Origin: Treponemataceae bacterium
GTDB taxonomy: Bacteria > Spirochaetota > Spirochaetia > Treponematales > Rectinemataceae
Assembly (NCBI GenBank): GCA_963678065.2
Contig: CAXXVZ010000003.1
Location: forward strand, 96,001-160,000
Direction of reading: 5' to 3'
Length of the DNA: 64,000 nt
Shown here: piece after piece, positions 7,637 through 28,708 of the stretch
How the letters are laid out: each line of letters opens with the position of its first letter
How positions within the stretch are numbered: position 1 is the stretch's first letter
The notes under the pieces: generated by a model
The model's database searches: none
The model's input: only the letters and a program-made list of their open reading frames with translations
What the model was told of the DNA's origin: nothing
Position numbers and translations under genes: made by a program

Positions 7637-9031
7637 GAGGCTTTTTCAAAACTTCGTAATCCGCTTTGTAAAAAAGCGAGTTATTGTAACTGAAGCTTCG
7701 TTTTTGCACAGTAAAAATTACATGTGCAGTAAAAAGGGCTCTCTTTTCAGTGCAAAAGATGGACTACCCCTACAAAATCCGGTTCTGCCGGATTGCCCGG
7801 TTACGATTTCTGCAGTTCGGGAAGGATGAAGTACTGCAAAGCCTTGACGGCCGCCAGAACCACTACCCCGCACATGAGCAGGAATGATACTTTCTCAAAT
7901 CCCCGTACAAATATCTGACCCGGTATGAGCCAATCCTTCAAATGCGAGTTTGCACGTTCAACCGTTGTCCTGATTGTGTACCGCTCCTTCTGTGACGGCG
8001 AAAATGGTTCCCGTTCCGTCCCACGACGCGTATTCCGATCAATCAGCGGAACACGCCCACGTCCCTGGATATAGGTCGCGATGGGATCCGCATCGTATGC
8101 AGCGTCCATGACTGAATACAGATGTCGGACCTTTTTCTCTGTTATCTTTTCCAGAGGAATCGCTACTTGCGAATCATGAACATTGGCGCCGGTTACGACT
8201 GCTGAAATAGGGAATCCTGTGTCGCTGACATCAAGGTGCAACTTGTATCCTTTCCATGTTTCCCTATTCCCCTGGCTGTTCTTCTTGCATCCCCATGCAC
8301 AGTCTTTGGATAGTTCTGACAAGGATTTCCTGACGCTTTGGCCGACTTGCTTTTCTATCTGTGTCGGCTCCTTCACAGGCCGAACTTCTCCTTTTCGGGG
8401 ACGACCTCGTTTCCGTTGCGGTGTCACGGAAGAAACAGCTTCACGTTTGGCAGGTACAGGTTTTTCTCGTGCTCGTATCTCCGTCGCATCCCGATTTATG
8501 TGTCCGACGATATGGCCGTCATGACAATCCTTCACCATGGTATTCAAAGTCTGAATCAGCGGAGTCTTTTTTGAAAACTCCGCGTAGCGACGCGAAAAGG
8601 TCGCAGAGCTTGGAACGGAGGTGAAGCCGCATATCCTCCGCAGATTCGGATCGTTGATCAGCCTGTTCCTAAGGTCCGTGACTGTCGCTATGTGGAATAC
8701 CGTTCGGGCGAAAAACGCCCGCATGATCGGTTCGTTCCGATGTGGAGGACGGCCAGTCCGTGCACATGGTGATGTAATCCGTGGCTGAGCATCTTCAATG
8801 ACTCTGAGCAGGGCGATAAAAAAGCGATGCTCGTCGGTGAGATATTCTTCGAAACATCGCTGGATATCGTAGGAAATCGGCAAAAGTATTTGCGCTCCGC
8901 CCAGTATTTCTGGTATGGTTTTCATCAGCGGGGGCTCCTCCTGGTGACGTTTGTGTTGCAACATCATCATACAGGTTCTGTCCCCGCTTTTCATTAAAAT
9001 TCGTTCATCTCATGACTTTTGAAAGAGCCTC
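7637..9031 (-). mobile_element. IS5/IS1182-like insertion sequence, 1395 bp
   Basis: 15-bp terminal IRs (GAGGCTTTTTCAAAA / TTTTGAAAGAGCCTC, one mismatch); 4-bp direct repeat TAGT at 7633-7636 and 9032-9035. Confidence 0.9.
7801..8925 (-). CDS. DDE transposase (IS4/IS5 superfamily)
   Basis: DATEI, WKGYKLHL, ANVHDS, MDAAYD and RTTVERANSHLK motifs. Confidence 0.9.
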   Translation of the reverse strand: MKTIPEILGGAQILLPISYDIQRCFEEYLTDEHRFFIALLRVIEDAQPRITSPCARTGRPPHRNEPIMRAFFARTVFHIATVTDLRNRLINDPNLRRICGFTSVPSSATFSRRYAEFSKKTPLIQTLNTMVKDCHDGHIVGHINRDATEIRAREKPVPAKREAVSSVTPQRKRGRPRKGEVRPVKEPTQIEKQVGQSVRKSLSELSKDCAWGCKKNSQGNRETWKGYKLHLDVSDTGFPISAVVTGANVHDSQVAIPLEKITEKKVRHLYSVMDAAYDADPIATYIQGRGRVPLIDRNTRRGTEREPFSPSQKERYTIRTTVERANSHLKDWLIPGQIFVRGFEKVSFLLMCGVVVLAAVKALQYFILPELQKS

Positions 9032-9732: not shown

Positions 9733-10371
9733 ATGTCGAATATAGACGAAGAAAATGTAATGATTGATTATTATGTAATTGTTTTTGACTTATGCTCTTC
9801 CTCAGTAATTCTTGAAGATTTACAAAATCAAGAAAAATTGGATAGATGGAAATTATTCTGGGAGAAAATACATGCTTTTTTAGTAAAAACATCACATCAT
9901 GAAGAAGTTTTCACAATCTATAAATTTGTTGGCGACGGTTTTATTCTTTTATATAATCCAGAATTTGAAGATGGATTAATAAGATATTGTATAAGGCTAT
10001 CAAAAATTATTAATGAAGAACTTGGCAAAATAATTGAAAATGATATGAATGTCCGACCAGATAGATTGGGTATCACAATTGGTGTTGATAAAGGAAAACT
10101 AATACAGTTAAAAATTGGAAATTTATATGAATATACTGGTAAAGCCATTAATGTTGCCTCTCGTCTTCAATCGTCATTAAAAAAGCCCGAACATGCGAAT
10201 AAAATGTTAGTTTCTAAAAATGTTAAGAATAGAACTTGTTCATTGTATGATAGTAGTTTATATAAAAGTGTTGAAAGAACATTAAATAATTTATTTGGTG
10301 ATAAAAGTTTTTATTGTTATGAAATTGATTTAACCGTTGATATAACAGATTATATAACTGAAAAAATCTAA
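9733..10371 (+). CDS. Cassette 7: stand-alone class III nucleotide cyclase
   Basis: VFDLCSSS, KFVGDG and GKAINVASRLQS motifs; the stop codon lies in R''. Confidence 0.88.
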   Translation: MSNIDEENVMIDYYVIVFDLCSSSVILEDLQNQEKLDRWKLFWEKIHAFLVKTSHHEEVFTIYKFVGDGFILLYNPEFEDGLIRYCIRLSKIINEELGKIIENDMNVRPDRLGITIGVDKGKLIQLKIGNLYEYTGKAINVASRLQSSLKKPEHANKMLVSKNVKNRTCSLYDSSLYKSVERTLNNLFGDKSFYCYEIDLTVDITDYITEKI

Positions 10372-10478
10372 CAACTGCTTCAACCTGACTCGGCTATGTC
10401 ACGATTCTTGCTAGTCGTCGCTACGCTCCTCGGCAAGAATCGCGCCAAAACGCCTCGCAGGTTAAGCAAATGTTATGT
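10366..10478 (+). other. attC7
   Basis: ATCTAAC...GTTATGT. Confidence 0.92.
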
Positions 10479-11268: not shown

Positions 11269-14200
11269 ATGAATTGGAAAATTTTTTGTGTAAAATACGA
11301 CAATCGAGAGGCATGGGCATTTGAACAAATGTCTTATTTGCTTTTCTGTGCAGAGTTTAATAATCGAATTGGATTATTTCGCTATAAAAACCAAACAGGA
11401 ATTGAGACAGAGCCAATTGAAAAAGACGAAAAATATTATGGTTTTCAATCCAAATATTACACGACCTCAATCGCTGACAATAAAGGCGACATTATTGATT
11501 CAATCCAAAAAGCCAAATCAAAAAACATACAATTAGATGAATTATTTCTCTACATCAACCAAGAACTTTCCGAAAGCACCACTAAAAGTAAGAAGAAACC
11601 TCAATACCAATTAGACATTGAGAAATCCGTTAAGGCAGTAGGCGTAAATATTCAATGGCGAGTTCCAAGTCATTTTGAATTACAATTGTCTTTGCCGGAA
11701 AATAAATATATAAATGACATTTTTTTCAGCCTTGACCCAAACGAAGGAGATTTGCTTGATGAAATTTCTAAACACAATGAAAATATTCTAAAAGCAATTC
11801 AAACTGAAATATCTTTTGGCGACAAGCAAATTAAAATTGACCGAAATTCTGTCGTTGAAGCAATAGCAAATGCTACTCAAAAGAAAAAAAATATAATTAT
11901 TTCAGGCGAAGGTGGTTGCGGTAAGACCGCAATTTTCAAGGAGTTTTATAATTTCTATTTTAAGAAGATACCAATTTGTGTTTTTAAAGCAAACGAGCTT
12001 AATGTAAATCACATTAATGATATATTTCACTTTGACCACAAATTCACATTTGTGCAGTTTCTCAATGCTTTTAAAGATGAACCTATTAAAATATTTGTAA
12101 TTGATTCCGCAGAAAAACTTGCAGAGATTTCTAACAGCGACATTCTTACTACACTAATACAACAGTTAAAAGAAAACGCTTGGAATATCATCTTTACAAC
12201 ACGCTACGCTTATCTTAACGATTTAACTTTTCATATTAAAGAGAATTATCAGTTACCATTTGACGTTAATGATGTTTCTTTGATTGGTGCTGATGAATTA
12301 AAATCAATAGCAGAAGAATTCAAATTCTCACTTCCTGACAATCAAAAATTCTTAGAACGACTTAGAAATTTGTTTTATCTGAGAGAGTATGTTCAACAGT
12401 ATTTAAACATTGATAAACAAGGAAACTATAAAGGATTTATTGACTTGCTTTGGAAAAAGCGAATACAAAATACCGTTCAAAAAGATAATTTACATCTTGA
12501 AAGAGAAAAGTGCATTATCAATATTGCTAAACAAAGATGCGAAACAGGTCGGTTTTATATCAATGCAGATGATTTGTCACAATCAGCGTTGTTCCAATTA
12601 AAGCAAGACGAAATACTTGGTTATGATGATACACATAACGGATATTTTATTACTCACGACATTTATGAAGAATGGACGTTGGACAAAATAGTTTCCCGTA
12701 GTTTTTCAAATTATTCAAACATAAAAGAGTTTTTTGACGAATTAGGGAATTCATTGCCCATTCGTAGAGCATTTAGATTGTGGTTATCTGACCATTTATC
12801 TGAAAATTCTAAAGAAATAGAAAGTTTTATTCAGGGAGCATTTACAAATGTTGAGGTTACTCAATTTTGGAATGATGAAATTTTAGTTTCAGTTTTATTG
12901 TCAGATTATTCAGCGACATTTTTTAAGTTTTTCGAGAACGAAATTATTGCAAATGATTTTAAAATACTAAAGCGGATTTTGTTTCTATTAAGAATTGCAT
13001 GCACCGATATTTCAGCAATTCAAAATATTGAAATTATAAAACCTAAAGGCAAAGGTTGGGAAGAAGTAATTGACCTTATTCACATACATAAATCTGACTT
13101 TTTCGATAGCAATTTAAAACTTGTTTTACCAGTGTTAAACGATTGGTGCGAATTCAACAAAAAAGGAGAAACAACAAGGTATTCGGGTTTATTAGCTTTA
13201 AGTTTAATAAAAAAGACAGAAACCGAAAAAAACTTCTACATGAAAGAAGTTGCAGAAGAAAATATTTTGAAAGTAGTTTTCAATGCAGCCAATGAAATAC
13301 AAACAGAATTAAAAGAAATATTTGATAAAGTAGTTGCTAATAAATGGAATGAACACCAAGACCCATACGAAAAGCTTTGTTCGAAAATTTTAACAAAACC
13401 TTACCTAGCTTTAGAGGTAATAAAAATTCTTCCATTATCTGTAATTCAATTATGTAACTTGTATTGGCAAAAACGAGAAAGAGAAAATGACGGATTCGGA
13501 TATGAAAGAGATAGTATGGAGAATAAATATGGTTTAGTTGATGAATTTAGACATGATTATTTTCCTGCAAGTGCTTTTCAAACGCCGATTTATTGGTTAC
13601 TACAATATCGTTTTAAAGAAACTCTTGATTTCATAATTGACTTTACAAATCGAGCTGTTAAAACTTATAGTCAGTCTGATTATGGTAAAGAAGATGTTGA
13701 AGAAATTAATCTTAATGTCAATGATAAAGAAGTAACACAATTTTTAAGTTGGTCAATTTGGGCTATGTATCGTGGGGTTGGTAGTCCAGTTGTACCCTAT
13801 TTATTGCAATCTATCCACATGGCTTTAGAAAAAATTCTTTTAGAATTTTCTCAGATATTGAAGTCTGAAATAGTTCAATCTATACTTCTTAAAATTCTTA
13901 TAGAATCAAAATCAACTTCACTAACCTCAGTTGTTTGCAGTGTTGTATTAGCAAATCAAGATAAATTCTATGATATTTCTTTAGTATTATTCAAAACAAT
14001 TGAATTGTTTCATTGGGACTCAGTTAGAAGCTTAAATGAATTTCAAGTGTTTAATCCTATCCTGCCCCAAAAGGAATATTGCACCAAAGAGAGAGCAGAT
14101 GCCAAGGAAGCAAAACATCGAAATTCAAATTTAGAATCATTATTCTTAAATTATCAGCTTTTCGGTGTAAAAGGGTTTAGCGAAGAACAAAATATTGAAT

Positions 14201-15936
14201 TCATCGAAAAATTGTATAAAATAATCGACCATCATAAATCCAATGTTTTAAAAGCAAAATCATTTGGAATATTATTGGCCAGAATGGACAGACGAAATCT
14301 GATACCAAAAGTATCAAACCATGGCGACAATAATTTACTAATAGAATTTAGTCCAAAAGAGCTTTCTGAAGAACTTAAAAAGGAAAGCGAGGAAGCCACA
14401 AATCAATATAAAGAGGCTTTTAAATATTCTTCTCTAAGAATCTGGGCGGATTTTTTGATTGGAGTGAGAACTCAAACAAAAACCACAAAACAAGAGGAAT
14501 ATAACAACAATCCTCTTTTAGCTTTAGCTGAGACGAAACAACTTGTTGCAGAATTGCAATCTGGACGAAATATAGGTATCTTGGATTATTCAATCCCAGG
14601 GTTTTCTTGCTCAAAATTAATGATTGAATACAAAGACAAACTATCAAAAGAAGATAAAGATTTTTGCAAAGAAATTATTCATTCTTCCCTGTTAAATCTT
14701 TTTGCCGATGATTACGATTATCAAATAAGTGATGGTGTTGAAGCATCTGTTCATGCGATTCCAGCATTAGTAAATGAATATCCAGAAGAAGCAGAAAATT
14801 ATGTTTCAATAATGGTTTTAGCACTAATAGATGAAACACCAATTGGACAGTACAAAAGAATATGCGATTACGTCATTGAATCAATTCACAAATCAAAATT
14901 GTGGGAGCAAAATTCAAATGTTGCGCAATCAGTTTTATTTGGCTATGTAAAACTCAAGCCTATTTATAAAAATATTATTGCGGAAATAAGGAAAGAAAAA
15001 GGTTGGGGACGAATTTCTAAAAGTTCGATTTTTGAAAAGTTAGAAATGATAAAACCTGATTTTACTTTTGAAAATATATCATTTGACATTCATGATATTG
15101 CTTCACTTGACATTCATGATTTGGAAATAGTTCTTCAAATAATTCCTTCTGATACGAAAAATAAAATTCATTTAGATATTTATGCGAAATCATTGCCGTC
15201 ATTGGCATCACAGTTATTGAAAGATAGGAGAAGCTATAAAGACGATTCAGGAGACGACTCTAACATTTACCTGTTACGTCAACATATTTTCAAAAATTTT
15301 GCTTATTTCATTTTACAAAGAGAACAAAGCGAAATTGAAGTGTTCCTTAAACCATTTATTGATTCGTTTTCTTCAACAGAAGAAACAGCTTCATTTATTG
15401 AAGAATTAGTAATTGCAGAAGATTACTTAAACAAGTATGAACAATTTTGGTACATTTGGAACAGCCTATATTCGAAAATAAAAGAACTATGTGCAAATCC
15501 ATGTGGCTATCATTTAAAAGAAATCATAATAAATTACCTATTAGCATGGCGTTGGTGGAGTGAAGGTATAGAAGCATGGCGTAGCTTAAAAAGGGAAAAT
15601 TTGTCTCTCTATGCTAATGTTTCTAAGGAAATAGGAAATATTCCTTCTGTATTGTATTCTATTGTCAAAGTTTTGAATTCAATTGGAAGCAACTTTAAAG
15701 ACGAAGGCATTGACTGGATTCATATAATTGTATCAACTAATTGCTCTTTAAATCTTGGTGATTTAGAATCAAATACCTTATACTACTTAGAGAAGTTTTT
15801 AAGGAAATTTATTTTCGTTAATAGACAAAAAATCAAGGAAGAAATTAGATTGAAAAATAAAATTATTCCGATTCTTGATTTCATGATTGAACGAGGTTCT
15901 ATACATGGATATTTATTAAGAGAAAGTATTCTTTAA
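11269..15936 (+). CDS. avs4: Cassette 9: AVAST type 4-like antiphage protein (Mrr-like nuclease + STAND NTPase + helical sensor)
   Basis: N-terminus FEQMSYLLFCAEF...FRYKNQTGIETEPI...GFQSKYY resembles Avs4; Walker A GEGGCGKT; Walker B FVIDSAE; 1555 aa. Confidence 0.88.
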   Translation: MNWKIFCVKYDNREAWAFEQMSYLLFCAEFNNRIGLFRYKNQTGIETEPIEKDEKYYGFQSKYYTTSIADNKGDIIDSIQKAKSKNIQLDELFLYINQELSESTTKSKKKPQYQLDIEKSVKAVGVNIQWRVPSHFELQLSLPENKYINDIFFSLDPNEGDLLDEISKHNENILKAIQTEISFGDKQIKIDRNSVVEAIANATQKKKNIIISGEGGCGKTAIFKEFYNFYFKKIPICVFKANELNVNHINDIFHFDHKFTFVQFLNAFKDEPIKIFVIDSAEKLAEISNSDILTTLIQQLKENAWNIIFTTRYAYLNDLTFHIKENYQLPFDVNDVSLIGADELKSIAEEFKFSLPDNQKFLERLRNLFYLREYVQQYLNIDKQGNYKGFIDLLWKKRIQNTVQKDNLHLEREKCIINIAKQRCETGRFYINADDLSQSALFQLKQDEILGYDDTHNGYFITHDIYEEWTLDKIVSRSFSNYSNIKEFFDELGNSLPIRRAFRLWLSDHLSENSKEIESFIQGAFTNVEVTQFWNDEILVSVLLSDYSATFFKFFENEIIANDFKILKRILFLLRIACTDISAIQNIEIIKPKGKGWEEVIDLIHIHKSDFFDSNLKLVLPVLNDWCEFNKKGETTRYSGLLALSLIKKTETEKNFYMKEVAEENILKVVFNAANEIQTELKEIFDKVVANKWNEHQDPYEKLCSKILTKPYLALEVIKILPLSVIQLCNLYWQKRERENDGFGYERDSMENKYGLVDEFRHDYFPASAFQTPIYWLLQYRFKETLDFIIDFTNRAVKTYSQSDYGKEDVEEINLNVNDKEVTQFLSWSIWAMYRGVGSPVVPYLLQSIHMALEKILLEFSQILKSEIVQSILLKILIESKSTSLTSVVCSVVLANQDKFYDISLVLFKTIELFHWDSVRSLNEFQVFNPILPQKEYCTKERADAKEAKHRNSNLESLFLNYQLFGVKGFSEEQNIEFIEKLYKIIDHHKSNVLKAKSFGILLARMDRRNLIPKVSNHGDNNLLIEFSPKELSEELKKESEEATNQYKEAFKYSSLRIWADFLIGVRTQTKTTKQEEYNNNPLLALAETKQLVAELQSGRNIGILDYSIPGFSCSKLMIEYKDKLSKEDKDFCKEIIHSSLLNLFADDYDYQISDGVEASVHAIPALVNEYPEEAENYVSIMVLALIDETPIGQYKRICDYVIESIHKSKLWEQNSNVAQSVLFGYVKLKPIYKNIIAEIRKEKGWGRISKSSIFEKLEMIKPDFTFENISFDIHDIASLDIHDLEIVLQIIPSDTKNKIHLDIYAKSLPSLASQLLKDRRSYKDDSGDDSNIYLLRQHIFKNFAYFILQREQSEIEVFLKPFIDSFSSTEETASFIEELVIAEDYLNKYEQFWYIWNSLYSKIKELCANPCGYHLKEIIINYLLAWRWWSEGIEAWRSLKRENLSLYANVSKEIGNIPSVLYSIVKVLNSIGSNFKDEGIDWIHIIVSTNCSLNLGDLESNTLYYLEKFLRKFIFVNRQKIKEEIRLKNKIIPILDFMIERGSIHGYLLRESIL

Positions 15937-15958: not shown

Positions 15959-16071
15959 GCCCAACAACTGCTTCAACCTGACTCGGCTATGTCACGATTC
16001 TTGCTTGTCGTCGCTTCGCTCCTCGGCAAGAATCGTGACATAACGCCTCGCAGGTTAAGCCAATGTTGGGT
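15959..16071 (+). other. attC9
   Basis: GCCCAAC...GTTGGGT; R'' complements GTTGGGC at 11194. Confidence 0.92.
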
Positions 16072-16614: not shown

Positions 16615-17907
16615 TAAAGTGCGCCTAATCGTCAATACAGAAAAAAAGAAAAATAAGGTGGATCCCAATTTGTCCTTGTATTCATGAATTTCTATGCTGC
16701 CAGCCGTAGGCTGAAGCATCGGTTATACACCTCATCCGGTGTAGCATACTCAAGGGACTGATGAAATCGTTCCTGGTTGAAGAAATTGAAGTATTTGTCG
16801 ACGGCGGTCTTTAGTTCCACGAGCGATTCGTACGAGTTCAGGTAAATTTCTTCGTACTTCAGTGACCTCCAGGTCCGCTCGATATAGATGTTGTCCAAAG
16901 CCCGGTTGACGCCATCCATGCTGATCTGGATTCCTTTGGCTTCAAGAACCGAGACAAACGCCTCGGATGTGAACTGGCTCCCTTGGTCGGTGTTGAAGAT
17001 CCCGGGAGTCCCGTGTACGGTAAGGGCTTCTTCCAGAGCATCGATGCAGAATCCTACATCCATCGTATTCGAGATTCGCCACGACAGAACTTTCCGTGAA
17101 AACAGGTCGATAATCGCCACGAGATAGACATGAGACCCATTCACCTTCAGGTAGGTCACATCCGTTGCCCAGACATGGTTCGCTATCCATATTTTCTTGT
17201 CTCGCAATAAATACGGGTACTTCTTGTGGTGTTTCGACGGTTTCGATAGATTCTTGCCGGGAAAGAGAGCCTTGAGTCCTGCCCGCTTCATGATCCGCCT
17301 GACCTGCTTGCGGGTGACCTTCATATCCTTCAAGGCACAGGCCATCCGCCGGTATCCATAGAACGGATGCTTGTTCAATTCTTCGAGAATTGCCGTGAGT
17401 ACGGCCATCCCCCACTCGTCATCCATCTTTACTGATGTGTAGTAATACGCCGATCTGCTGATTCCCAACAGTTCACATTGCGTGATGATCGGCAGATCCT
17501 GATTGTCGGGTTCTACAAGTTCGGCTCGCTCCCGTACACCTGTCGGTACTTTTTTTTTAGAAACGCATTCTCGACCTGGAGTTGCCCAATCTGCTTGAAG
17601 AGCTCGTCCTGCTTCTCTTGGGCTACTTCTGCTTCCTTGTCCTTCCCTGATCTTTCAAAGAGCGTGGCTACTTGATCGACCACATGCTTTTTCCATTGGG
17701 CAATCTGATTCGGATGCACTCCATAGATTTGGGACAGTTCCTGAAGGGTTTTCTCGTTCCGGACTGCTTCCATGGCCACTTTGGCCTTGAAGCTGGTGTC
17801 GTAGCTTTTGCGCATGGTGTACTCTATGCCTCCCGTATCTTTTTTTACAAGGAGGAATGTCACCTTATTTCCCTTTGTTTCCTGTCTGATTTCTTGGGCT
17901 CATTATA
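16615..17907 (-). mobile_element. IS3-family element, 1293 bp, inserted in the R'' box of attC10
   Basis: Imperfect 26-bp IRs (15/26 matches); 3-bp direct repeat CCC at 16612-16614 and 17908-17910. Confidence 0.88.
16692..17863 (-). CDS. IS3 transposase OrfA/OrfB, joined by a probable -1 frameshift
   Basis: OrfA HTH (17513-17863); OrfB rve core (WATDVTY, NTDQGSQF, DNIYIER); A9G slippery run near 17549-17558 on the minus strand. Confidence 0.88.
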
Positions 17908-18063
17908 CCCAACACCTGCTTCAACCTTATAAAGCCTTTTGTCATGGTTTTTGCAAAACAACAATGCAAAAACCACGCCAATCCTTCGCTTCGCTCAGGC
18001 CAGGCTTTAAAGATATTATGAGTATACGATCTTGAGGGAGGAAACGAAGAAAGGTAACATTGG

Positions 18064-18261
18064 AATTGTACGGAAGTAGAAGGAAGATGAAGGTTGGGCT
18101 TAACCTGGGACACAGAGCCCGATTGCAGATTAACCAGCCTTCTTCGGACAATCCCTTGGGATCGTTTTTAAATCGACGAAAACCCGGATAGAAGTATGAA
18201 GGCCTACTACTTGTTTCCAAGATAGAGGCTTCGATTCTGCCTGATACTTCTGGTGTACAAT
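18064..18261 (+). ncRNA. Predicted bridge/seek RNA
   Basis: Closing stem ATTGTAC/GTACAAT; two parallel internal loops carrying guides that match the attC target and the element junction. Confidence 0.75.
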
Positions 18262-18271
18262 ACGGGGGAGG

Positions 18272-19429
18272 ATGGAGATGACCGAAAAGGAAAGGATCAC
18301 CAACGTCAGTGAATGTGAAGAAATCGAGGCGAGTTATTATGGCATCGATCTTCATAAGGATCAAATAACCTGGCATTGCATCGATCGGACATCGAAGGGG
18401 ATTTTGGTTCGTAGAACAGGGAAGATATTGACGGATCGTATCCATGAGGATTTCATTCCGATGCTGCGCAAGGAAAAATGCTATGTAATCGTGGAAGCCT
18501 CCGGGTCAACTTTTTTCTTCCACAGCCTGATACAAAGCCACTGCACGAAGGCGATCATCGTCAATCCATCTGCTTTCCGGGAACTGTATATGACCGGGAA
18601 AAAGACAGACCGGATCGACGCGAAGAAATTGGCTGACCGGCTGATGTACCACATAGAGATGGAGGACGGCGACGATGGATTTCCCGAAGTATTTGTTCCG
18701 GACGAGGAAGCCCTGAAGATCCGCAAACTGGTAACAACCTATGAATTATTGGTTAAGCAGATTACCCAGGCAAAGAACCAAGTGAAGGCCATCTTCCGTT
18801 CAAAAATAATTAATGTCGATGTAGACGTGTTGGATAATGGACTGGAAATAGCCCTACAAAATGTGAGCCTGGACAACGCGGACAAAATTATCGTTCGGTC
18901 GCTCAAAGGATTGTACGATACTTTGTGTCGCGAGAAACAGACCATCAAGGAAGCGATACTCTCCATAGGAGTACGCCGATTTCGAGACGAAATAGCGCTT
19001 CTCACCAGTATATCAGGAGTAAGCATCATCGGGTCGATTGTCTTCATGTCAGATATAGTAACTGTAGGACGCTTTGATTCCGCCAAGAAGTTGACATCCT
19101 ATTTGGCCAGCGTCGGAAAGGTAGACGCATCGGGAAATACTACGAAGAACGGCGGACTCAACAAACGTGGAAGGCGAACCTCGTACCGTTTCATCCTGCA
19201 AGGCCTTGAACATATAGTCAATGGTAACGAAGGGTTCCAGCGATTCAGGGCAAGGCATGCCTCGAAGCGATCAAACAAAATAAGGGCGGCAATTGTACGC
19301 AAGACCTTTGTCACGATGTATTACATGTTAAAGAATCATGACATGTACCGTTTTCTGAATAAATCCATCTATACTCGGAAAATAAGGGAACTGAACAAGA
19401 TCAAAAAAATAATTGAAAAAGCGGCTTGA
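18272..19429 (+). CDS. IS110-family DEDD recombinase
   Basis: GIDLHK, VEASG and KTDRIDA motifs; C-terminal Tnp domain (SISGVS...DASG). Confidence 0.95.
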   Translation: MEMTEKERITNVSECEEIEASYYGIDLHKDQITWHCIDRTSKGILVRRTGKILTDRIHEDFIPMLRKEKCYVIVEASGSTFFFHSLIQSHCTKAIIVNPSAFRELYMTGKKTDRIDAKKLADRLMYHIEMEDGDDGFPEVFVPDEEALKIRKLVTTYELLVKQITQAKNQVKAIFRSKIINVDVDVLDNGLEIALQNVSLDNADKIIVRSLKGLYDTLCREKQTIKEAILSIGVRRFRDEIALLTSISGVSIIGSIVFMSDIVTVGRFDSAKKLTSYLASVGKVDASGNTTKNGGLNKRGRRTSYRFILQGLEHIVNGNEGFQRFRARHASKRSNKIRAAIVRKTFVTMYYMLKNHDMYRFLNKSIYTRKIRELNKIKKIIEKAA

Positions 19430-19538
19430 CGGATTTTCTCATAGAAGGTTAAGCAAATGTTGGGTTGACGCTTCGCGCGATGAATATAATTGAGATACGA
19501 TCCCAATTTATGTATTGGTGAAATAGAAAGGACAAAAA

Positions 19539-21817: not shown

Positions 21818-22113
21818 TGACTAAAGCATACCGATAGAGAGAAAGGATTTGAGGTGAAGAAGAGCTGCGCAAAGAGACCGTGGAAAAGCCGCCTGAAAGA
21901 ACTCTCTATGCGTTCGCAGAAAAAGGCGGCGGGAGAACGGTCGAAGAGCGCAGCAAGACTTAGAAAAATGGGAATAAGAGATCACACCGAGAGGTTTGCT
22001 GGTACGAAGAGCGTCGCGAGGAACCGTCCCAGGAGCGCGCAGTCGCGCGCACGAGAATGGGACGGCGAAAAAAGCGCCGCAAGATTGTGGCGACAGATGA
22101 CTGTTGTTCTAAC
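21812..22113 (+). other. Cassette 13: no convincing ORF
   Basis: Bounded by GTTAGAA and the complementary TTCTAAC; the only + ORF reads through the attC. Confidence 0.65.
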
Positions 22114-22120
22114 AACTGCT

Positions 22121-24039
22121 GTGTGCCACGAAATCTGATGGGCACTTTTGAATAGTGATTCAGGAGGTGTCATAAGAGCTGTACGACAGATGAGGAAACA
22201 CCGGGGTAGCTGGTGTGAGCCTCGGGATCTGCTTGCAGGAGCCGGTCTCAAACCGCCAGAAGCTGCTTGGATAAAGAGTCCCGGTGGTGAACGTATCTGG
22301 TTAAAAGGCCCCCGCATGACGGGGTCAGGTGTGGTATCAGGAGGCGAACGAAAGTGAACCGACCGATGAGGTGTCGAAAGTGAGTTTGATGAGGTCAAAA
22401 GCAGTGATTAGCTAGTGCGCTGTGAAAAGAGTCCATCGGGAAACCTGTGTACTGGGTGGACGGCCTCCGGCATTAAGGCGGCGTGAATTGATACTGGGCT
22501 GTTGTATGGAACGTGGGAACCTGTCGTTCCGATGTGAAGGGAGAACCTCAAGCGGCGAACCCGACGAGAGGGAGAGTACCGATGCGGAGCACAGGGACGT
22601 CGCCAGGATGGCGCCGGCTCGTAGTAGTGATGAAGTTCCTGTAACGGGAATGGAGCGAAGGGGCCGACATACTCGTGTCTTTTCTGAACGCCAACTGGCG
22701 ACAGGATGAACGGATGGGAAAGGCAAAACCGTTTGACATACCGAAGCGACTCGTATGGAAGGCATACCAGCGTGTACGGGCGAACGATGGGGCGGCGGGG
22801 ATCGATGGACAGACGCTTGAGAAGTTTGACGGGAAGCTCTCGAAGAATCTCTACAAGCTCTGGAACCGGATGTCCTCGGGCAGCTATCATCCAGACCCAG
22901 TGAAGAGGGTGGAGATTCCGAAGAAGAGCGGAGGAACGCGAGTGTTGGGAATACCGACAGTCGCGGATCGAATCGCGCAAATGACCGCGCGGTTGTGTTT
23001 CGAGCCCATGGTGGAGCCAGGGTTCCATGACGATTCCTACGGATATCGACCGGGGAAATCAGCCCACCAGGCCGTGGCGAAAGCCCGGGAACGGTGCTGG
23101 AAATACGACTGGGTCATCGATCTGGACATCAAGGGATTCTTTGATACCATCGAGTGGGAGCTCATGATGAAGGCGGTGGCGTTTCACAAGCCGCCCGAGT
23201 GGGTTCGGCTGTATATCGAGCGATGGCTCAGAGCCCCGGCAAAGGATGACGCGGGAACGATCATTGAGAGGGATACGGGAACGCCGCAGGGTGGGGTGAT
23301 AAGCCCGCTGCTGGCGAATCTGTTTCTGCAGTACGCCTTCGACATGTGGATGGAACGGAGACACGGGGGAAACCCTTTCGAGCGCTATGCTGACGACATC
23401 GTCAACCACTGCCGGACACAGGCGGAGGCAGAAAATCTCCTCGAAGAGATCAAGCTGCGATTGGCCGAGTGCAAGCTGACGGTACATCCGGAGAAGACGA
23501 AGATCGTGTATTGCAAGGATCGGAACCGTAGGGGAGACTATGAAAGGACCGAGTTTGACTTCCTCGGCTTCACCTTCAGGCCGCGCACGGCGAGGGGGAA
23601 GAACGGGAAGCTCTTCGTGGCCTTTACCCCGGCGATCAGCAGAAAATCCGAGCAGGCGATCAAGGACACGATCCGGACGTGGCGAATCCAGAGGGCGGCG
23701 ACAGCGACCCTCGAAAGTTTGTCGAAACTGTACAACTCGAAGCTTGCGGGATGGTTTGCCTACTACGGGAGATTTCGGCCATCGGCAATGTACGGAATCT
23801 TGTGCATGTTCCAGAAAATCCTCGTAAAATGGGCAAAGTGCACATACAAGCGCCTGAAGAGGAGCTGGCTGAAGGCCGCCGAACTCATGAAGAATGCAGC
23901 TGACAACAAGAAGCACTTGTTCATTCACTGGGAGCATGGATGATATGCCAATGGTAGAGTGTGAAGAGCCGTATGATGGGAGACTATCACGTACGGTTCC
24001 GTGAGAGGCTGGGGGTGAAAATCCCCCGGCCTACTCGAC
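22121..24039 (+). mobile_element. Full-length group II intron, RmInt1-like (class D)
   Basis: 5' GTGTG; domain V GAGCCGTATG...GTACGGTTC from 23966; domain VI with bulged A, ending CTCGAC. Confidence 0.93.
22714..23943 (+). CDS. ltrA: Group II intron reverse transcriptase/maturase, no endonuclease domain
   Basis: NLYKLWNRMSSGSY, GTPQGG, YADD, KTKIVYCKD and C-terminal LFIHW motifs. Confidence 0.95.
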   Translation: MGKAKPFDIPKRLVWKAYQRVRANDGAAGIDGQTLEKFDGKLSKNLYKLWNRMSSGSYHPDPVKRVEIPKKSGGTRVLGIPTVADRIAQMTARLCFEPMVEPGFHDDSYGYRPGKSAHQAVAKARERCWKYDWVIDLDIKGFFDTIEWELMMKAVAFHKPPEWVRLYIERWLRAPAKDDAGTIIERDTGTPQGGVISPLLANLFLQYAFDMWMERRHGGNPFERYADDIVNHCRTQAEAENLLEEIKLRLAECKLTVHPEKTKIVYCKDRNRRGDYERTEFDFLGFTFRPRTARGKNGKLFVAFTPAISRKSEQAIKDTIRTWRIQRAATATLESLSKLYNSKLAGWFAYYGRFRPSAMYGILCMFQKILVKWAKCTYKRLKRSWLKAAELMKNAADNKKHLFIHWEHG

Positions 24040-27303: not shown

Positions 27304-28460
27304 GAGATATGATCAATTGTTGTGGACAGGGGAATAGGAAACGGACGTTCATTTCCGGTAGGGTTTTGTCGCCAAACGAAACCACCGAAAGGGAGAACGT
27401 CCGTGCGACAGACTACAATCAAGCCTCAAAATGATGCAATGCCCGAAACCATGCTGGTGCTGGAAGCCCTCATACGAGAGGGAGCCCGAAAACTGCTCCA
27501 TGCAGCATTGGAAGATGAAATCGAAGCGCATCTTGCCCGGTATCGTGATCTGAAAGACACAAACGAGAGACAGTGTGTGGTGAGAAACGGATACCAGCCG
27601 GAACGGACAGTCCTCACGGGAGCAGGACCCATTCCGGTCAAGCGTCCACGGGTAGACGACAGGATATTGGCAAAAACAGGCGACGAGCGTTTCACAAGTA
27701 CGATATTGCCGAAGTTTATGAGACGGGCGGCGAGCATCGATTCCCTCGTACCTGCGCTGTACCTGAAAGGGATTTCCACCGATGATTTTCCGACAGCCTT
27801 GGAGGCAATCCTGGGTCCACAGGCAAAGGGGCTTTCAGCAACCACGGTAGTACGGCTGAAAGAAGTGTGGACCGATGAATACGAGGAATGGAATAAGCGG
27901 GATGTGAGCGGGAAGCGATATGTGTCCATCTGGGCCGATGGGGTGTACTGCTCTGCACGGCTCGAAGATGAACGATCCTGCTTTCTGGTTATCATGGGCG
28001 CTGATTCATTCGGTAAAAAGGAATTGCTTGCTGTTTCCGACGGTTTCAGGGAAAGCGCGCAGTCCTGGAGAGAGCTTCTTCTCGGCCTTCGCTCTAGGGG
28101 ACTTGTCCACGTACCTTCCCTTGCTGTCTGTGACGGTGCCATGGGATTCCAGGCGGCGGCTGCGGAAGTATGGCCGGAAACAAGAATCCAACGCTGCTGG
28201 TTCCATAAGTCCGGCAATGTCGTGGATACGCTGCCCAGTTCTATCCAGGCAAAGGCCAAGGACATGCTCCACGACCAGTATCTCGCGCCGACGAAAGAGG
28301 ACGCGCTCAAGGCTTTCAGCCTGTTCATTGAAACATTCGGAGCCAAATATCCGAAAGCGGTGGAATGCTTGACAAAGGACAAGGACGACCTGTTCGCCTT
28401 CTACGATTTTCCTGCTGCCCATTGGGTACATATTCGGACGACGAATCCTATTGAATCGAC
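27304..28460 (+). pseudogene. Truncated IS256-family element (transposase from GTG 27403)
   Basis: RNGY, LYLKGIST, IWADG and QRCWFH motifs; homology ends after RTTNPIEST; no right end found. Confidence 0.88.
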
Positions 28461-28612
28461 ATTACCAATGTCATCAAGGCTCAGTCGACTCTTTTCGCCC
28501 ATTGGGAGTGGGGGGGTACGGTACAGGCAGAATATGAAGAGCCGTATGAATCAAGAGATTCACGTACGGTTCCGTGAGGGGCTGAGGGTGAGATTTCCTC
28601 GGCCCACTCGAC
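28461..28612 (+). mobile_element. Group II intron 3' fragment (RT tail + domains V-VI)
   Basis: Frame from 28461 reads ITNVIKAQSTLFAHWEWG; domain V from 28539; ends CCCACTCGAC. Confidence 0.88.
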
Positions 28613-28708
28613 CTTATTAATCCTTTGCCATGGTTCTTGCGAGAAGATCACGCAAGAACCATGCCAAGCCCTTCGGACACGGATTTAAAGGTTAAGCCAA
28701 TGTTAGAA
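28613..28708 (+). other. attC14 right part
   Basis: CTTATTAATCC...GGTTAAGCCAATGTTAGAA; same subfamily as attC13. Confidence 0.85.

Follow-up and report, generated by a model that had tools for sequence, protein, structure and literature searches.

The stretch of DNA analysed here (64,000 nucleotides, hereafter the window) contains a chromosomal integron, the tenth attC site of which (attC10) is split by a 1435-bp element. This element is very probably an autonomous, RNA-guided insertion sequence that belongs to an unnamed, deep-branching lineage of the IS110 superfamily. That it is a real attC-targeting element with a predicted guide RNA is well supported by comparative analysis of its limits, the catalytic residues of its recombinase, a two-loop RNA scaffold, the covariation of guides with flanking DNA, the occupancy of attC sites and a promoter consensus at its joined ends. 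Transcription and binding of the RNA, a circular form and the chemistry of the reaction are what we infer by analogy with related systems. The element is laid out as a core dinucleotide AG (18011–18012), 259 nt of non-coding DNA, a gene of 385 codons (18272–19429), a 16-nt right end and a second AG (19446–19447); these parts, the integrase gene and attC7, attC9 and attC10 are all on the plus strand.

The integron integrase (956–2140; TIGR02249, 450 bits against a cut-off of 265) is encoded on the same strand as the cassettes, and a pattern search found 14 attC right arms in the window. The host had been taken for a spirochaete from sequence alone, and rightly so: in a comparison of five genomes its GroEL is 86–90% identical to that of a Spirochaetaceae genome, as against 62–69% for Leptospirales, Chloroflexota and Bacteroidota genomes, with no match in one genome. 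A FlaA search, also directed at the host phylum, gave no match anywhere, controls included. More attC sites lie beyond the window, on contig G000:C3 of the host genome (2358859–2366324 and 854395); two of them carry CG, and not AG, at the core and otherwise match both target guides of the element in full. The window also holds an IS3-type element (16692–17905, minus strand) whose end abuts the R'' box of attC10, two other transposases (7801–8994 and 27322–28620) and, from Rfam hits, a group II intron with intron pieces (22109–24039, 25067, 28526–28612 and 29581; reverse transcriptase at 22675–23943). The intron and its pieces have the sense orientation and occupy the spacer that follows R'' in the left arms of attC sites; the IIC-attC introns, in the published descriptions covered here, are by contrast inserted antisense. 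One cassette encodes a protein of 1555 amino acids (11269–15936) with a weak, below cut-off match to a STAND NTPase family (nSTAND3), which is possibly a defence gene.

The left part of attC10 (17907–18010, comprising R'' at 17907–17913, L'' at 17919–17926 and the central stem-loop) precedes the element, and its L' (19447–19453) and R' (19459–19465) boxes follow directly, L' beginning within the right core copy. With the element removed, the site folds like attC11 (−38.6 vs −38.7 kcal/mol). The boundary of the element is fixed by contigs from public runs (two in X3 and two in X6) that cross 18012 and pass straight into an attC right arm, and which thus represent empty sites. The cores of guides 2 and 4 of the predicted RNA (see below) match the left core copy in 42/42 cases, and this also holds in the four homologues in which the two core copies differ. 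The left AG is therefore donor-derived and part of the element, which gives terminal extensions of 7 (left) and 3 (right), if counting starts at ATG/CAT and takes in the left core. A 7/3 offset outside the repeat is likewise described for the ends of IS1111 elements (PMC11187229). The IS1111-like subterminal inverted repeats announced by the sequence-only reading are indeed present (18017–18022 and 19438–19443), but at only 6 bp they are shorter than the 11–13 bp usual in IS1111; they measure 6–7 bp in the clade of attC-targeting relatives (the attC clade) and 9–11 bp in 9 of 19 wider homologues. The same reading had pointed to an upstream non-coding region in spite of such repeats. This arrangement is found (259 nt upstream of the transposase gene, at 18013–18271, vs 16 nt downstream) and is unusual, with published exceptions in ISMtsp17 and in ISHvo10, which has two such regions (PMC11187229).

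The gene product is, as judged by profile alignment, an IS110-superfamily DEDD/serine recombinase with intact catalytic residues: its frame is open, it matches PF01548, PF02371 and NF033542 (158 bits, cut-off 140), and residues D26, E75, D113, D116 and S287 align with the catalytic residues of IS621/ISCro4. Its identity is 19% to ISKpn4, 23% to ISPa25, 23% to an Escherichia coli protein called IS621-like from its PDB entry match, and 28% to ISHvo10. In quick trees, whose backbone lacks resolution and from which the short L122 and L351 were omitted, the lineage with upstream RNA forms a branch of its own (support 98), apart from the named IS1111 members (support 100) and from the IS110 members, and the attC clade is nested among homologues with other targets. 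The protein has 385 residues and lacks the GL-P----SG motif, the traits of IS1111 transposases being a length of 330–350 residues and possession of this motif, and it falls outside the named IS1111 clade (support 100), a sister relation to this clade being compatible with the data (p-AU 0.084).

The predicted bridge or seek RNA is encoded in the upstream region, where its core (18084–18209; covariance model R1, pair counts and RNAalifold) contains two internal loops. In the target loop, an outer stem (18089–18097/18134–18142, nine pairs with one G-U) encloses guide 1 (GCTTAACCT, 18098–18106), which complements the top strand of the core plus L', an inner stem (GGG 18107–18109/CCC 18118–18120) and guide 2 (18122–18130), made up of TTGCAG at 18123–18128 and the handshake dinucleotide AT at 18129–18130, which matches the two bases with which the left end begins. 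The donor loop contains guide 3 (ACAATCCCT, 18148–18156), a partial match to the left end (6/9), and guide 4 (18188–18196), in which ATAGAAG (18188–18194) matches the right end plus core at 7/7 and is followed by the handshake TA (18195–18196), matching attC here at 0/2. The stem, the four guides and the GGG/CCC pairing had all been singled out by the sequence-only reading, and each was recovered where it had been placed and with the matches that had been counted. As had been claimed, guide 1 finds a perfect reverse complement in 9 of the window's 14 attC right arms, and the remaining five agree at 7–8 of 9 positions. The 9/9 match of this guide to core plus L' is real, but only 8/9 of it is informative, since base 18106 belongs to the scaffold (invariant in 25/25 aligned RNAs, and pairing with the core in only 1/19).

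Guide 2 matches attC12 at 6/6, attC4, attC6, attC7 and attC9 at 5/6 and attC5 at 3/6; the occupied attC10 fits only partly, at 4/6, as the sequence-only reading had observed. The two sites proposed as best targets, attC7 (10369–10478, core at 10459) and attC9 (15962–16071, core at 16052), are confirmed, in that no other site of the array differs from the two target guides, taken jointly, by one mismatch or less. That the element sits in attC10 with a 4/6 fit to guide 2 while attC7 and attC9 are empty counts against the explanation preferred here. A given 9-mer is expected by chance in a 260-nt stretch with p of about 1e-3, and base composition would predict 29 instances of the guide-1 9-mer in the genome, which contains 15, 9 of them in this array. 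A single 9-base guide match is by itself suggestive only; the decisive evidence is covariation.

The sequence-only reading had, beforehand, made its fate depend on whether guides covary with targets, and all four guides were found to track their flanks in 21 non-redundant homologues. This set goes back to 35 loci put through scaffold-anchor parsing, which succeeded for 33 (all but L169 and L170), after L005, L016, L018, L022, L106, L172, L173 and L177 had been excluded for a missing end or anchor; removal of 12 near-duplicates left 21 homologues, 19 of them with a right end, and the window's element as sole representative of the attC clade. Guide anchors were picked after matches had been seen by eye, and the left end of L083 was shifted by one base by hand. 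The null consisted of 100,000 label shuffles, in which kinship is ignored and none of which reached the scores of guides 1–4: positions 1–7 of guide 1 match the right flank at 93/133 (shuffled 35.3), the non-core part of guide 2 matches the left flank at 91/105 (27.4), guide 3 scores 91/147 (74.3) and the variable positions of guide 4 score 56/57 (40.4). The two bases after guide 2 agree with the first bases of the element (37/42; shuffled 25.1) and the two after guide 4 with the target (23/38; 9.7), cognate handshake pairings being at or below chance (6/38 and 9/42); this handshake pattern is as described in PMC11208158. Controls in the opposite, IS621-type orientation remain at chance (31/147 vs 37.1, and 22/95 vs 24.3). 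The complement of the top strand precedes that of the bottom strand, which is the IS1111 order. Among 12 held-out model hits, none used in training, guide 1 matches at 23/28 (four loci) and guide 2 at 36/55 (11 of the 12 loci), with seven of the 12 being mutually close kin, L442 unparsed and L445 counted as 1/5 in spite of a full match by eye. The family core is NG (CG 12, TG 7, AG 1 and GG 1; n = 21). Scaffold and guides thus bear out the two-loop design of the RNA, but the CT core that had been cited with it does not hold for the family: since the core is NG throughout and guide 1 ends in an invariant base, the likeness to IS621 in this respect is partly coincidence.

Occupancy of attC is also seen in relatives. 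Among close relatives found by protein and with a readable right flank, 9/9 end at an attC right arm, with seven different flanks; the right flanks of L001, which is too short, and of L011 were taken from scaffold-anchor parsing, and metagenome assemblies over repeats may combine left and right flanks wrongly. Members of the attC clade are 64–91% identical and have their guides in common, except for L004, in which guide 2 and the left flank have both changed, in step; a loop of their RNA is shorter by one base than in the other homologues. In genome G629 (another family, same order) the right end of the element is present three times at the end of a contig, each time at an attC right arm (L448, L450 and L452) and once with a 66% identical transposase; these matches came from a pattern containing the attC arm and were excluded as a test of targeting. 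A DNA pattern scan of the named genomes for the attC guide returned 118 stretches, and among the 80 listed only L001 is a known element locus, the others being taken as chance.

The strongest competitor of RNA guidance, improbable as we consider it, is recognition of the attC hairpin or palindrome by the protein itself, the RNA only refining or recording the site. It would account for the presence of homologues L014, L019, L083 and L433 in palindromic repeats, for the two guide-2 mismatches tolerated at attC10 and for the variation of left flanks over the clade. It does not explain why guides follow flanks base by base at unrelated targets, many of them without an obvious hairpin, and it is at odds with the work of 2024 in which RNA-guided attC targeting was already shown and IS1111-attC elements were found to need their RNA (PMC11187229). 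The nearest relatives of the attC clade, L014 and L433, target a short palindrome, which suggests that the attC specificity of this RNA-guided element most likely originated from a guide change in an ancestor whose targets were other repeats, and that it did so independently of ISKpn4, ISPst6 and ISPa25.

Of the systems known, the IS1111-attC group with its seekRNAs (ISKpn4, ISPst6, ISPa25 and ISPa21; PMC11187229; PMC3001079; also Tetu & Holmes 2008 and Post & Hall 2009, as represented in citing papers) shares with the window's element RNA-guided insertion at attC, a guide order with the top-strand complement first, 7/3 ends and a DEDD recombinase. It differs in protein sequence (19–23% identity) and branch, in having its RNA downstream and not upstream, and in a repeat of 11–13 bp vs 6 bp here. 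Furthermore, ISKpn4 and ISPa25 have the antisense orientation and occupy the spacer that separates R'' from L'' (reported for this type also in PMC3001079 and PMC13604230), whereas the window's element has the sense orientation and lies in the right arm, one base inside L' at its inner edge, leaving R'', L'', L' and R' all whole. It is very hard to credit that the element is an ordinary IS1111-attC member whose RNA has moved upstream: guide order and 7/3 offset are as in ISKpn4, and a clade of the lineage plus the named IS1111 members is compatible with the data (p-AU 0.084), but the data reject a grouping with ISKpn4/ISPa25 (p-AU 2.3e-8), the identity to these two is low, the attC arm, position and orientation are different, and model R1 is silent in ISEc11, IS4321, IS1383 and IS5708.

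The bridge recombinases IS621 and ISCro4 (PMC11208160; PMC11208158; PDB 8wt6 and 9t56) resemble the element in their left-end RNA with a target loop followed by a donor loop, the presence of a 2-nt core in each of the four guides, handshake dinucleotides, the combination of DEDD and serine residues, and a junction promoter. In the window's lineage, in contrast, guide polarity relative to the transposase gene is reversed, the core is NG with a fixed G, the protein is longer (385 residues) and about 23% identical, and many members have longer subterminal repeats. With IS110 sensu stricto (IS621, ISEc21) the lineage has in common an RNA upstream of the transposase gene, but not a first guide corresponding to the top-strand left target, nor a repeat that is absent or of 2–3 bp (6–11 bp here). 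The nearest named element found, and the top named hit, is ISHvo10 of Haloferax volcanii (L297), in which inspection by eye showed a 14-bp subterminal repeat, an upstream region (607–836) and four guide-like matches in the same IS1111 order; its target is not attC, model R1 misses it and its sister position is weak (support 61). An unnamed Spirochaetes cluster (0657f86e2724b5dc06; Durrant et al., Supplementary Table 1, row 613) belongs to the same protein clade by motifs, but it figures there as a tree leaf without an ISfinder name, in a sheet without RNA or target. The literature covered, mostly outside subscription journals and including PMC13626964, PMC11616780, PMC5034289 and preprints 2025.10.25.684509 and 2025.05.14.653916 (their supplements, and parts of that of PMC11208160, fell outside), contained nothing on this RNA, on the target of this lineage or on a spirochaete attC-targeting IS110 element. 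The element should thus be regarded as one that works like a bridge or seek system and belongs to the IS110 superfamily, outside both the IS1111-attC and the IS621 groups.

Folding, which had been proposed as a check on the RNA, gave a divided answer. The conserved two-loop scaffold is supported by RNAalifold, which, when given a plain alignment, finds the donor stem as well as the two inner stems, with double changes at 8/15 pairs, the outer target stem being absent in the register used here. A model-fitted alignment (36 rows, 7 of them weak) shows double changes at 13/17 pairs and 90.1% of cells paired, vs 78.0% when shuffled and at most 54.8% when slid, such an alignment favouring its own structure. 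Folding of single sequences does not give the target loop: it is absent from the minimum-energy fold of the window's RNA alone (pair probability 0.00–0.01), and forcing it on the naked RNA costs 18.3 kcal/mol. The inner target stem is likely in the naked RNA of 20/33 elements, but in only 1/10 of the attC clade, where guide 1 is buried in 9/10 RNAs (inner target stem p < 0.1), so that the protein must impose the fold. The scaffold lies upstream of the transposase gene in about 30 loci and, with weak scores (E 1.5e-4 to 7e-3), downstream in L030, L052, L054, L064, L099 and L122; the guides of L030 fit its flanks by eye, and in L064 and L099 the right flank leads into a ribosome-binding site and start codon. 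Hits to the RNA module with a short transposase match or none (L438:481–610, L442, L444 and L436) are possibly non-autonomous or decayed elements. Rfam contains no family for the predicted RNA.

If the ends were joined, the −35 hexamer of the right end (19426–19431, within 19426–19445) and the −10 hexamer of the left end (18014–18019) would form a sigma-70 promoter, and a consensus match of at least 9/12, which is a match to consensus only, is found in 29/30 homologues with both ends. A promoter scan of the integrated element gave no site for the RNA, as expected for a promoter that would form only on the circle. No circle junction was found among the contigs of four public runs, and contig X19, from an RNA run, is a whole relative with even cover and 205 differences in 1448, uninformative on transcription. 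The genome contains a single full copy of the element, and also of the predicted RNA (model R1), and its present activity is for this reason putative. Three remnants of the family are found elsewhere in the host genome (G000:C2 641934–641950 and 643943–643959, minus strand; G000:C3 819225–819702, minus strand), all within decayed cassette regions and each with its right end joined to an attC right arm; the last transposase codons are still present in one of those on G000:C2, and the one on G000:C3, directly after a group II intron, retains 147 residues of transposase (69%). Although this single copy among decayed remnants and a target-loop fold that is not the energy minimum would suit matches that are due to chance or left by a dead element without functional RNA, the open frame, the five catalytic residues, the intact ends and promoter halves, the scaffold covariation and the guide–flank shuffle statistics make this a most improbable account.

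For an active, RNA-guided element the following cycle may be proposed. On the model of IS621 and of the IS1111 elements with their seekRNAs, circularisation would create the junction promoter, which would drive transcription of the left non-coding region. The resulting RNA would be bound by the DEDD/serine recombinase; its first loop would read the inner margin of L' in the attC right arm, on both strands, and its second loop the junction of the element itself. Exchange of strands would then take place at the AG core with the help of a handshake dinucleotide, and the element would be inserted in the cassette-sense orientation.

No new mechanism is established here, since RNA-guided attC targeting and the exceptions with an upstream region are already published. 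What is new, as far as comparison of sequences goes, is an apparently independent convergence of an RNA-guided element on attC, with a landing spot unlike that of the described group. It is also shown that guide polarity does not follow from the coding position of the RNA. The family constitutes a natural reprogramming set, with 21 targets, a fixed NG core and readable handshake bases, and could serve to test whether the rules of IS621 still apply at about 23% identity. With regard to the integron, long attC loops are reported to lose up to 4 logs of recombination under replication and little under conjugation (PMC8946536), and attC10, with its loop of 1.4 kb, has probably lost much of its capacity to recombine. 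A wider reading, which we hold to be unlikely though worth stating, is that the lineage represents a third bridge-recombinase subfamily, in which one scaffold has shifted between element ends with IS1111 polarity kept, and whose attC branch has been selected for landing in the attC loop, thus sparing all four integrase boxes. If this were true, the interrupted attC would be weakly recombinogenic and the element would be carried along within its cassette, the integron's passenger and not the destroyer of the site.
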